Shown: piece by piece, positions 7,401 through 9,676 of the stretch
How the letters are laid out: the number at the start of each line of letters is the position of its first letter
Position numbering within the stretch: position 1 is the first letter of the stretch
NCBI RefSeq assembly: GCF_056712565.1
Contig: NZ_CM160072.1
Reading direction: 5' to 3' (one strand)
Length of the DNA stretch: 64,000 nucleotides
Made by a program: the position numbers

Positions 7401-9676
7401 ACGATAACCGCGCATTCAACATGGCTACCTGTTCGTCGTTCATGTCATCAATCCACATACCGTAAATTTCATACACCATCTGCGCAGTTTCATGCCCCAT
7501 CTGGCTGGCTATAAATGCCGGGTTCGCTCCTGCCGTCAACAGCCAGCAGGCAAAAGTATGTCGCGTATGGTACGGATTACGGCGGCGAATACCAGCACGT
7601 TTTACTGCTGCATTCCATCTCGCTCCCAAATAGTCGTAGTGAAATCTGATGGGAAAGCCTTGCTTAGCATGCTGGTGTTGCGCTACCCGTACAGGATGCG
7701 GTAACACAGGAAGAAATTAGAACAGAAACTGTGGCGGACATTGTGCATTCGTTGCCAGGCGGAGAAATAGAACGCTACAACAGGTGCAGAATATAATTTT
7801 TCGCGAGTGCCAGAATAGCGATATTATGCAGTGTTTTTTAGTTTTCTATCAGGGGATATTTTGTGAAACTTTTCGGTGAATAAAATAATTCTCTGTAATA
7901 AATGATGAGTATGGTTGGTGGTTATATTTGCGCATGGAAATATTACATTAGACATGAATGTGTTTCAAATGAAAGAGCCATGACACCCGAATGGAGTTAG
8001 GGATTCATTACGTATCTAATCTAAAGAATAAGAAAAATACTTAATTCATTGTGGGTGGTGATGATATCTTGATATGTGAAAATGGTTCTCTTAATAAGAT
8101 GTAACTAGCTTATTACTTATCCATAGCACAAGAAATGGTCCTGTATCTGCGTTGCCATGAAATAAGATAGGCCTAAATGTAATAAAGAGTTGCATGACAA
8201 AATTACTAAAGTTCACAATAAAAAAGAATTAAGTTTTTTGTTCAGGTATTTTTTTAGTGTATTGTTTTGAAATGTTCTACGCTGCTCTAACCTTCAGTCT
8301 GAAGAGGGCTTGAATCGTGATGTCAGTTCGATTGACATAATGTTATTAATAATGTTTACGTTTGAATGTGAAATATGCTTAACTATGCCTTGATTGTTAA
8401 TCACAGGGACTGACTATGAGAAAAATACTGATGTATTTATGTATTAGCATATGGATTGTTATATCATGCGTGCCTATCATATTAACTAGCGAGTATTTAA
8501 CAGAGGCGAGTATAATGGCATTGATGTTTGGTCATGCCAATGCACTATGTATTGGGGTTTTTATTTCTATTATTTATATAGAATGCTGGAGGTAAATAGT
8601 GTGAACAGCATTAGTTTGATGATTTTATACTGAACTAAAGGGGGGAAGAGGTAACGAAAAAAGACCTCCACCAGGTACGAATCTGAGGCGGGCAGATGGA
8701 GGTCGATATCTACACGATTAAATTGATAAGTAAAAGCCCCATCAGGGATTGATTTTTTCGAGTCTAATTTAAAGTAATTTCAACGATTTGGCAGAATTTC
8801 TTAGAGTTAATGATTTTCAAGTTTTCGATTACCAGGAAAAAGGCTGGGTGCTGATAAAATAGTCATCTGCATTCCTTAAATTGTGTAAGGGTGAAAGGAT
8901 AAAGTTCAATTTAAAGGCGGTGCAATATTAGCACCATCTTATATATGTAATGATTGATTTGCCTCTTTATTCTACTGTTGAGATTATTGTTTTCGAAAAT
9001 TGATTATTATAAGCGCGAAAAGAAATGCTACAGCAAATAAGAGGACGATTGTCGGCGCTGGGGCTCTGTCGAGAAAATATAATAACCATACACCTGATAT
9101 TGTTATTGATATCGTTACGGCGATAAGTAATGCCTTATGAAAGCGATGCGTGATGAGGACAGCAATAGACCCTGGAGCTATTAATAGTATATAGACAGAA
9201 TAATTCCGACTGCTTTTAATGTGGCAAAAATGGTAGGCGATACCATGCAGAGTAAACCGTAATGTAATAATGATATCTGTAATCCGCTGACTTGTGCCTG
9301 TTGATAGTCAAGACAAAAATTCCTGAAAAAACGATACCTATAATGGTATCTTTCTTTATGATGCTATTATCTTTCAGATAGCCAGTTGCAATTGCACAAA
9401 ACAGTCCTACAATAAATGCACCAATTCCCAGCGGCATACCTATAATCCAGGCATAGAACTATGCCAGGAAACATTGCGTGGTTCATTGCATCTCCTATTA
9501 GCGCCCAGTCTTTTAATACCAGAAAAACTGATAATAATGCACAGGGGAACGATATTATAATAGCGATTATCAATGCATAATTCATAAATTTAAATTGTAA
9601 TGATTAGAGGGGAAAATGTCAGCACATTTGCGAAATAAATCAAAAAGCCCGCAGCAATGTGCGGGCGTTAGTGTCA

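Follow-up and report, generated by a model that had tools for sequence, protein, structure and literature searches.

A probable small membrane-protein gene beside a dead hok fragment in a prophage scar of Escherichia coli phylogroup B2

Introduction

GhoT and OrtT are small membrane toxins of 57 amino acids (aa) with two transmembrane helices, and T4 Imm and HK97 gp15 are small phage-encoded proteins of the inner membrane that block superinfection. In lambdoid prophages, the hok/sok loci (hokD/relF, hokW/mokW, gef; PF01848) are type I toxin-antitoxin systems and encode an addiction toxin. Here we describe a locus of Escherichia coli that bears some likeness to each of these systems: a 59-codon open reading frame (ORF) for a small hydrophobic protein, followed by a stem-loop, within a prophage scar on contig NZ_CM160072.1 of RefSeq assembly GCF_056712565.1. 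The stretch of 64,000 nucleotides (nt) of this contig that was analysed is called the window, and all positions refer to it unless another record is named. We favour, with a probability of roughly 0.7, the reading that the locus holds a genuine gene for a 59-residue membrane protein and a dead hok gene, two unrelated leftovers of one prophage module. The two elements are:

8416-8595, + strand: 59-codon gene for a predicted small two-helix membrane protein, B2-type allele, from ATG at 8416 to TAA at 8593-8595 (ORF list, tblastn homologue, codon alignment, IMG/VR loci, AlphaFold2 model)
8651-8740, + strand: 3' remnant of a hok/gef-family toxin gene, codons 24 to about 47 (blastn, translation, Pfam HOK_GEF)

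The window belongs to E. coli phylogroup B2; positions 8300-8800 are 100% identical to UTI89, S88, APEC O1, IHE3034 and the E. coli type strain. This segment occurs in 1044 of the 5426 complete E. coli genomes, never at less than 95% identity.

The ORF product is similar in length to GhoT and OrtT and is likewise predicted to form a two-helix hairpin, but neither the B2-type nor the phage-type clade of its family gave a Pfam match to them at E up to 10, and no GhoS-like partner gene lies nearby. Like T4 Imm and HK97 gp15 it is a small hydrophobic (pro)phage product encoded outside the core modules, which is the functional analogy that we favour, although there is no homology and neither PADLOC nor PHROGs returned a match for the ORF product. 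The greater part of the B2-type protein weakly matched DUF4212/TIGR03647, the small subunit of a sodium:solute symporter (E 0.07 and 0.03). However, the scores lie below the curated cut-offs (13.9 against 30 bits, and 14.5 against 26.05), the phage-type homologue is unmatched, and the adjacent genes are prophage remnants with no symporter among them; the match is most likely compositional similarity. The mok reading frame, through which hok translation is coupled, is likewise 5' of hok on the same strand. In intact loci, however, 258-260 nt separate the end of the ORF described here from the hok ATG, so that the ORF and hok do not overlap; the ORF has no mok homology, and in phage locus L020 it stands upstream of the hok promoter as we read that sequence. 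A class II holin or pinholin was also considered and rejected: in phages the gene lies upstream of Q beside hok, the protein ends in ...IECWR with no charged tail, and no PHROG holin was matched. The ORF product is outside every described family.

Results

The ORF was found exactly at the coordinates originally predicted, and its product is MRKILMYLCISIWIVISCVPIILTSEYLTEASIMALMFGHANALCIGVFISIIYIECWR. The two hydrophobic helices proposed for it are supported by hydropathy and by an AlphaFold2 model, a helical hairpin with helices at residues 2-24 and 30-58 and a mean predicted local distance difference test score (pLDDT) of 78.7. The grand average of hydropathy (GRAVY) is 1.37, compared with a mean of 0.18 (standard deviation 0.51) for open stretches in shuffled sequences. 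When the 1.2-kb AT-rich stretch is shuffled by dinucleotides, 42% of the shuffles contain a reading frame of at least 59 aa if only ATG counts as a start, and 62% if any start codon does; shuffling the 300 bp past the ORF yields an 8-bp repeat with a loop of 3-40 nt in 19% of cases. From the window alone neither the ORF nor the repeat beats chance, and hydrophobicity is the only feature to stand out; both gain significance solely through comparison with other sequences.

Such a comparison was provided by tblastn against phage genomes, where residues 1-59 were matched at 40.7% aa identity (E 3e-11) in three phages, vB_EcoS-640R1, vB_EcoS-813R8 and PhiR42_1. The homologues in Rac-like and lambdoid E. 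coli phages are full-length, with 59 codons, no insertions or deletions and about 41-44% aa identity. The codon alignment of the B2 and phage copies is ungapped, conserves start and stop codons, and shows 60% DNA identity, distributed over the first, second and third codon positions as 58, 73 and 48%. Non-synonymous sites differ less (pN 0.33) than synonymous ones (pS 0.72, a saturated value). The + frame is the only one open in both copies, and it scored 61 bits in tblastn versus 42 bits for the antisense frame. A full-length homologue of equal length (~41% aa identity) with a coding pattern of substitution refutes the concern that the frame might have arisen by chance in AT-rich sequence.

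In phage records ON470612.1 and PV340562.1 (L020 and L021, 2907-3158, - strand) an antisense ORF of 84-85 aa, named 'hornerin' or hypothetical protein, is called over the 59-codon gene. Because this antisense frame is broken by stop codons in the window, the phage call looks like a misannotation.

A HMMER search of 1.84 billion representative proteins recovered only the B2-type and phage-type clades, plus truncated or fused variants. A word-indexed protein search gave near-identical E. coli sequences only, and the homologue surfaced through tblastn on uncalled phage DNA. The phage-type clade was found in E. coli and Shigella. From a scan of IMG/VR that returned 158 relatives, 80 loci were kept for examination, and the 59-codon ORF is intact in every one of them. 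Residues invariant in the alignment of the two types, which define the proposed family, are W13, S17-C18, P20-I21-I22, T24, F38-G39, N42-A43-L44, G47-V48-F49, E56 and W58-R59. This family has no name as yet, and all members found to date come from (pro)phage DNA of Escherichia and Shigella. A separate scan of 100,044 species-representative genomes gave a single locus (L022), a phage-type ORF at 1662-1838 of JAIJJM010000167.1; this 5.5-kb contig is assigned to a 'Collinsella sp.' metagenome-assembled genome and is probably mis-binned E. coli prophage DNA.

The phages also place the ORF next to hok. In 640R1, O and LygF are followed in turn by four small genes, the 59-codon ORF (3001-3180), hok/sok (mok at 3383-3595), rem-toxin, ydfU, rusA and Q, and in 71 IMG/VR loci the hok ATG follows the ORF stop codon by 258-260 nt. 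Conservation among the phage-type loci begins ~130 nt ahead of the ORF and extends through hok, with divergence beyond, indicating that the ORF and hok/sok travel together as one transferable cassette. The ORF is the most conserved part of the shared segment (98-100%, versus 92-96% for the hok leader). These figures are per-segment identities, since the flanks of the phage loci are mosaic and non-homologous and would distort a count of variable sites. The ORF is missing from most hok loci of E. coli, K-12 and O157 among them, and ~70% of the sampled rows cover hok alone (each record's best place being the one ranked).

In IMG/VR loci L024-L102 a sharp mosaic boundary was seen about 230 to 130 nt before the ORF start. 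To its left stand several unrelated classes of sequence with 46-76% apparent identity, and to its right the ORF and hok/sok with 92-100%.

The window shows the same order as the phages, with a LygF remnant, the ORF and the hok remnant; the LygF C-terminus is matched by 7737-7870 (tblastn). The B2 scar preserves the LygF-ORF-hok order from a diverged module of the phage kind. The anchoring segments are:

7703-7870, + strand: remnant of the phage early gene LygF (DUF1627-DUF977), the upstream synteny anchor (blastn, tblastn, RefSeq pseudogene annotation)
8269-8632, + strand: segment collinear with the phage ORF module (L020 2859-3218; local blastn 61.8% over 369 columns, E 6e-20; pairwise alignment)

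Downstream of the ORF, a sensitive blastn search with 7700-9000 matched 8650-8748 to hokD, MokW and gef sequences in E. coli chromosomes, phages and plasmids at 76-82% identity, and local blastn of the remnant against hok genes gave E 2e-16. Translation from 8651 reads VTKKDLHQVRI*GGQMEVDIYTIK, for which Hok has VTRKDLCEVRIRTGQTEVAVFTAYE. The Pfam model HOK_GEF aligned only over positions 19-36 of 42 (18 positions), and as no more than a fragment of the gene is left, the score of 15.7 bits (E 0.011) stays under the cut-off of 22. The remnant contains an in-frame TGA at 8684-8686 and has lost 4 nt through deletions near its 3' end. Its 5' side is bounded by a larger loss:

8633-8650: deletion junction at which ~285 bp of the phage-type locus are gone (alignment to L020, 3219-3506)

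Lost through this deletion were the hok promoter, sok, hok codons 1-23 and the leader of the mRNA, which carries the mok start and the Sok target. Within 8250-8660 there was no significant similarity to hok leaders, and within 8337-8760 no match to Sok or any other Rfam family (E up to 10). Compared with a working hok/sok locus, the remnant is without promoter, 5' leader (tac, mok, Sok target), sok, start codon and the transmembrane half; the likeness consists of homology over 8651-8740 (75-82% DNA identity) and a retained internal coding hairpin, the sole features of membership found here. This part of the locus is a decayed chromosomal hok pseudogene of a known kind. A GTG at 8601 with a GGAGG at 8589 was weighed as hok start codon and ribosome-binding site and rejected, since 8596-8632 aligns with phage DNA just past the ORF.

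The stem-loop falls inside this remnant. The perfect 8-bp inverted repeat gacctcca/tggaggtc is present as reported, but its arms occupy 8663-8670 and 8697-8704, 4-7 nt to the right of the interval first given for it (8656-8700). In terms of hok it is:

8663-8704, + strand: the inverted repeat, in which hok codons 28-30 (D-L-C) pair with codons 39-41 (T-E-V)

An equivalent hairpin, GACCUCUG/CGGAGGUC, was found in all 73 intact hok genes collected. Its arms form 8 of 8 Watson-Crick pairs in the window, compared with seven plus one G-U pair in 68 of the 73 intact genes and further G-U pairs in the other five. Two inner pairs of the window hairpin are altered yet still paired (U-G to C-G and G-C to A-U), which suggests that the hairpin was maintained while the window's copy of hok diverged. 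The fold energy is unexceptional (z = -0.19 on the + strand, -1.53 on the - strand). What had been taken for a structured element downstream of the ORF is thus the dead 3' fragment of a hok/gef-family gene, and the stem-loop is inherited hok coding sequence and not a regulatory element.

Upstream of the ORF, two candidate expression signals can be read in the window:

8404-8408, + strand: weak Shine-Dalgarno-like AGGGA, 7 nt before the ATG, a putative ribosome-binding site (direct reading of the sequence)
8355-8384, + strand: candidate promoter TTTACG-18 nt-TTAACT, picked out by eye, in which the spacer ends in TGC and would provide an extended -10 (TGnTTAACT)

A consensus promoter scan did not call the candidate promoter. 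The phage homologue carries TGTTTAAAT at the matching place, and it has AGGAGG ahead of its start codon, a stronger ribosome-binding site than that of the B2 copy.

Sequence variation around the ORF was counted in two sets, one consisting of the window and eight B2 variants (the 9-sequence set) and one of eight genomes including E2348/69, 536, ATCC 25922, ST131 and NRG857C (the diverse set). In the 9-sequence set 28 sites vary in 7761-8336 and 20 in 8645-9092; between them 8337-8644 has no variable site, and these invariant 308 bp have a scan-corrected P < 5e-5. The counts in the diverse set (variable sites/sites compared) are:

8337-8644, low-polymorphism block (ORF with 79 bp upstream and 49 bp downstream): 4/307
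8416-8595, ORF: 1/180 (M6V)
AT-rich DNA to the left: 34/579
hok remnant: 8/116
ABC permease pseudogene: 23/600
uspF: 4/435
ompN: 13/1134
ttcA: 20/936

At the rate of the surrounding non-genic DNA in this set (71/1518), 8.4 variable sites would be expected in the ORF and 1 was seen (Poisson P about 0.002). When the 1044 genomes were sampled at 60 evenly spaced ranks, the block proved 100% identical to the window in 54 of them, and either flank in only 7. The ORF is intact in essentially all 1044 carriers. Of the comparison across strains that the original prediction proposed, conservation of the frame is therefore borne out in the B2 carriers, but within-clade dN/dS (the ratio of non-synonymous to synonymous rates) is uninformative: the substitutions are few and all non-synonymous, so that it cannot show constraint.

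Single isolates depart from this picture. An IS1 insertion at the last codons of the ORF was seen in one B2 genome, strain 2020C08-115 (L012, about 1790-2600). In genome H200 the block is matched only from about 8400 onward, in two places, which may reflect a further insertion, located after the candidate promoter and ahead of the start codon. The 87-aa protein P0006, which NCBI names 'tyrosine-type recombinase/integrase, partial', consists of an integrase remnant (...YEIYGMW) fused to the ORF from residue 14 (IVISCVP...). Because the integrase remnant and the ORF lie on opposite strands, this product of one isolate implies an inversion or deletion at the MWI/IWI microhomology, or else an assembly artefact.

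Discussion

The locus descends from a Rac-like or lambdoid prophage in which a small gene was followed by hok/sok, the small gene normally sitting between the replication genes and hok/sok-rem-ydfU-rusA-Q. The comparisons show that the frame of the ORF is conserved and protein-coding, that it is tightly linked to hok/sok in phages and that it outlived the loss of hok/sok in B2; we take it to be a genuine gene, and its helical-hairpin product is predicted to span the inner membrane, probably with both termini in the cytoplasm because Arg/Lys residues lie at both ends and the loop is acidic. The ~285-bp deletion killed hok, with the in-frame stop codon and the frameshift coming later. The small gene appears still to be maintained in B2, where it varies about as little as the neighbouring working genes, and the adjacent hok, ABC-permease and other remnants seem to drift at a neutral rate. 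Expression in B2 would probably come from the gene's own extended -10 candidate promoter and weak ribosome-binding site. Our best guess is that the product serves the prophage as an accessory ('moron'-type) protein in the inner membrane and, by analogy with T4 Imm and HK97 gp15, we would lean towards interference, directed at incoming phages or at a membrane protein of the host. A self-standing toxin is less likely than such interference, because no antitoxin or antisense RNA is evident, the phage ribosome-binding site is strong and exposed, and the gene is stably retained.

Several observations weigh against a maintained and functional gene. The ribosome-binding site of the B2 copy is weaker than that of the phage copy, and the promoter at 8355-8384 is a reading by eye. 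RefSeq, through the Prokaryotic Genome Annotation Pipeline (PGAP), annotates neither strand at the ORF among the E. coli records displayed. Searches with the ORF protein and its homologue gave no match above threshold that would indicate a function in Pfam, NCBIfam, PHROGs, PADLOC or PDB profiles, and Foldseek of the AlphaFold2 model against viral structures found generic hairpins only (E above 2). In the diverse set the scan-corrected P for the block is 0.09. The remnants of an integrase and a DUF1627 gene (7399-7757) are near-invariant too, with 2/348 variable sites in the same set; a history of recombination or a sweep could therefore account for the low diversity of the ORF, and low diversity does not simply equal function. 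Within each clade the ORF variants are all non-synonymous, if mostly conservative (M6V, S11N, A31V and I50V; V16A, V31I, I37M, Y40H and M53T). Finally, rare disrupted alleles exist, comprising W58stop in 11 contigs, frameshifted products and the IS1 insertion at about 8590.

Some of these points fit an explanation in which the family is real in phages and the B2 copy is a silent relic, still intact by chance and low in diversity through recombination or sweep history. The equally invariant pseudogene remnants (2/348), the P of 0.09 and a ribosome-binding site degraded relative to the phage copy would all fit it. Nin-region transcription from pR presumably cannot remain in the scar, and by our estimate so few substitutions would be expected that an intact 180-bp ORF in B2 is not improbable under neutrality. 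Set against this, the low-diversity block coincides with the ORF and its immediate flanks and ends at the deletion junction; the adjoining hok remnant varies at 8/116, and the block is identical in ~90% of the 1044 genomes versus ~12% in the flanks. Moreover, the recognisable neighbours (hok, integrase, DUF1627 and the ABC permease) have stops, frameshifts or truncations, and the ORF has none. We regard a silent relic as unlikely, but as an explanation to be taken seriously. Beyond the maintained gene that we favour, one can go further and suppose that the product is an active small membrane protein, be it a phage-exclusion or other membrane-active factor or a modulator of Hok, domesticated by phylogroup B2, which is rich in extraintestinal pathogenic E. 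coli, after the remaining prophage with its hok/sok had been lost. We put this forward tentatively and think it rather doubtful.

The original prediction raised the possibility of a type I toxin. One is indeed involved at the locus, in the form of the hok relic, but the evidence does not extend this to the ORF. As a membrane-damaging small toxin, the ORF product would be either a type I toxin with an antisense RNA or an orphan of the GhoT/OrtT architecture, whose size and two hydrophobic helices it resembles. It is tightly linked to the addiction toxin hok/sok, and a sigma-70-like antisense promoter is predicted inside the ORF (TTGGCA-17-CATTAT, 8540 to 8512). However, this promoter is not conserved in the phage-type sequence as we read the alignment, no Pfam family (GhoT/OrtT included) was above threshold for either clade, and no RNA family was matched. 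The AGGAGG of the phage copy is strong and apparently unsequestered, unlike that of typical type I toxins, and one would have to explain how 1044 genomes stably keep a toxin that is unguarded. We consider a toxin quite improbable.

It is similarly hard to credit that the protein works with hok/sok as one functional module, for example by modulating Hok insertion or providing immunity. The fixed spacing of 258-260 nt to the hok ATG in 71 loci would suit such a partner, as would the left mosaic boundary ~130 to 230 nt before the ORF ATG, which leaves the ORF and hok/sok to travel jointly, and the standing of the ORF as the most conserved part of the segment (98-100% versus 92-96% for the hok leader). 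Yet most E. coli hok loci do without the ORF (~70% of sampled rows are hok alone; K-12 and O157 are examples), B2 keeps the ORF though its hok is destroyed, and the linkage may be mere neighbouring insertion.

That the stem-loop is itself a working element in place, such as a minus-strand terminator, is scarcely believable: the minus strand does present a 10-bp stem followed by UUUUUU, but the loop is 22-26 nt long, the fold z-score is -1.53, a terminator scan did not call the stem, the A-run stems from a single AGG-to-AAA codon change in hok, and the repeat was inherited from hok in a segment that varies at a neutral rate (8/116).

A maintained small gene of this kind would be widespread. About two of every five complete E. 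coli genomes carry it, an estimate combining the 1044 genomes with the B2 allele and at least about 1070 with the phage allele beside hok, and none of the RefSeq records displayed annotates it. This gap is probably due to its short length and its absence from K-12 and O157. Some pipelines label near-identical E. coli proteins 'hypothetical' or 'uncharacterized membrane protein', and in the literature, ribosome profiling (Ribo-seq) in B2 strains included, nothing was found on the 59-codon ORF. If the B2 copy is expressed, it would offer a clean case of one small prophage gene kept amid decay, and a candidate for the under-studied small membrane proteins of extraintestinal pathogenic lineages. 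The hok part is ordinary, another decayed chromosomal copy; it illustrates that a striking stem-loop can be plain inherited coding sequence.

Surrounding locus

In the RefSeq annotation of the identical UTI89 locus the order is dbpA, ttcA, integrase remnant, DUF1627 fragment, an unannotated stretch of ~1.2 kb, ABC permease pseudogene, uspF and ompN. The unannotated stretch has a G+C content of 31-38%. The flanking features are:

6412-7347, - strand: ttcA (RefSeq annotation of the UTI89 locus)
about 7399-7630, - strand: remnant of a Rac-type tyrosine integrase, beside ttcA, marking the prophage attachment side (UTI89 RefSeq annotation, ORF translation)
about 7642-7757: DUF1627 fragment (RefSeq pseudogene annotation of the UTI89 locus)
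8984-9585, - strand: metal ABC transporter permease pseudogene, frameshifted, between the scar and uspF

The scar is the Rac attachment side of ttcA, from which nearly the whole prophage has been lost. The prophage setting that was first suggested is confirmed by the Rac-type integrase, LygF/DUF1627 and hok remnants between ttcA and uspF. As to the near-invariance of the integrase and DUF1627 remnants, constraint from a promoter or regulatory sequence of ttcA, or a recent sweep, is possible.

An Rfam scan of 7300-9800 (E up to 10) gave no match within 8337-8760 and weak, chance-level ones elsewhere, and a tRNA scan of the region gave none. Among the Rfam scores, the Salmonella small RNA STnc420 appeared below threshold at 8213-8263 on the - strand (21.9 bits against a gathering score of 70, E 0.41), most likely by chance. 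The ABC permease at 8984-9585 carries a pseudogene annotation in all B2 genomes inspected, and its density of variable sites (23/600) is intermediate between those of the working genes and of the AT-rich junk.

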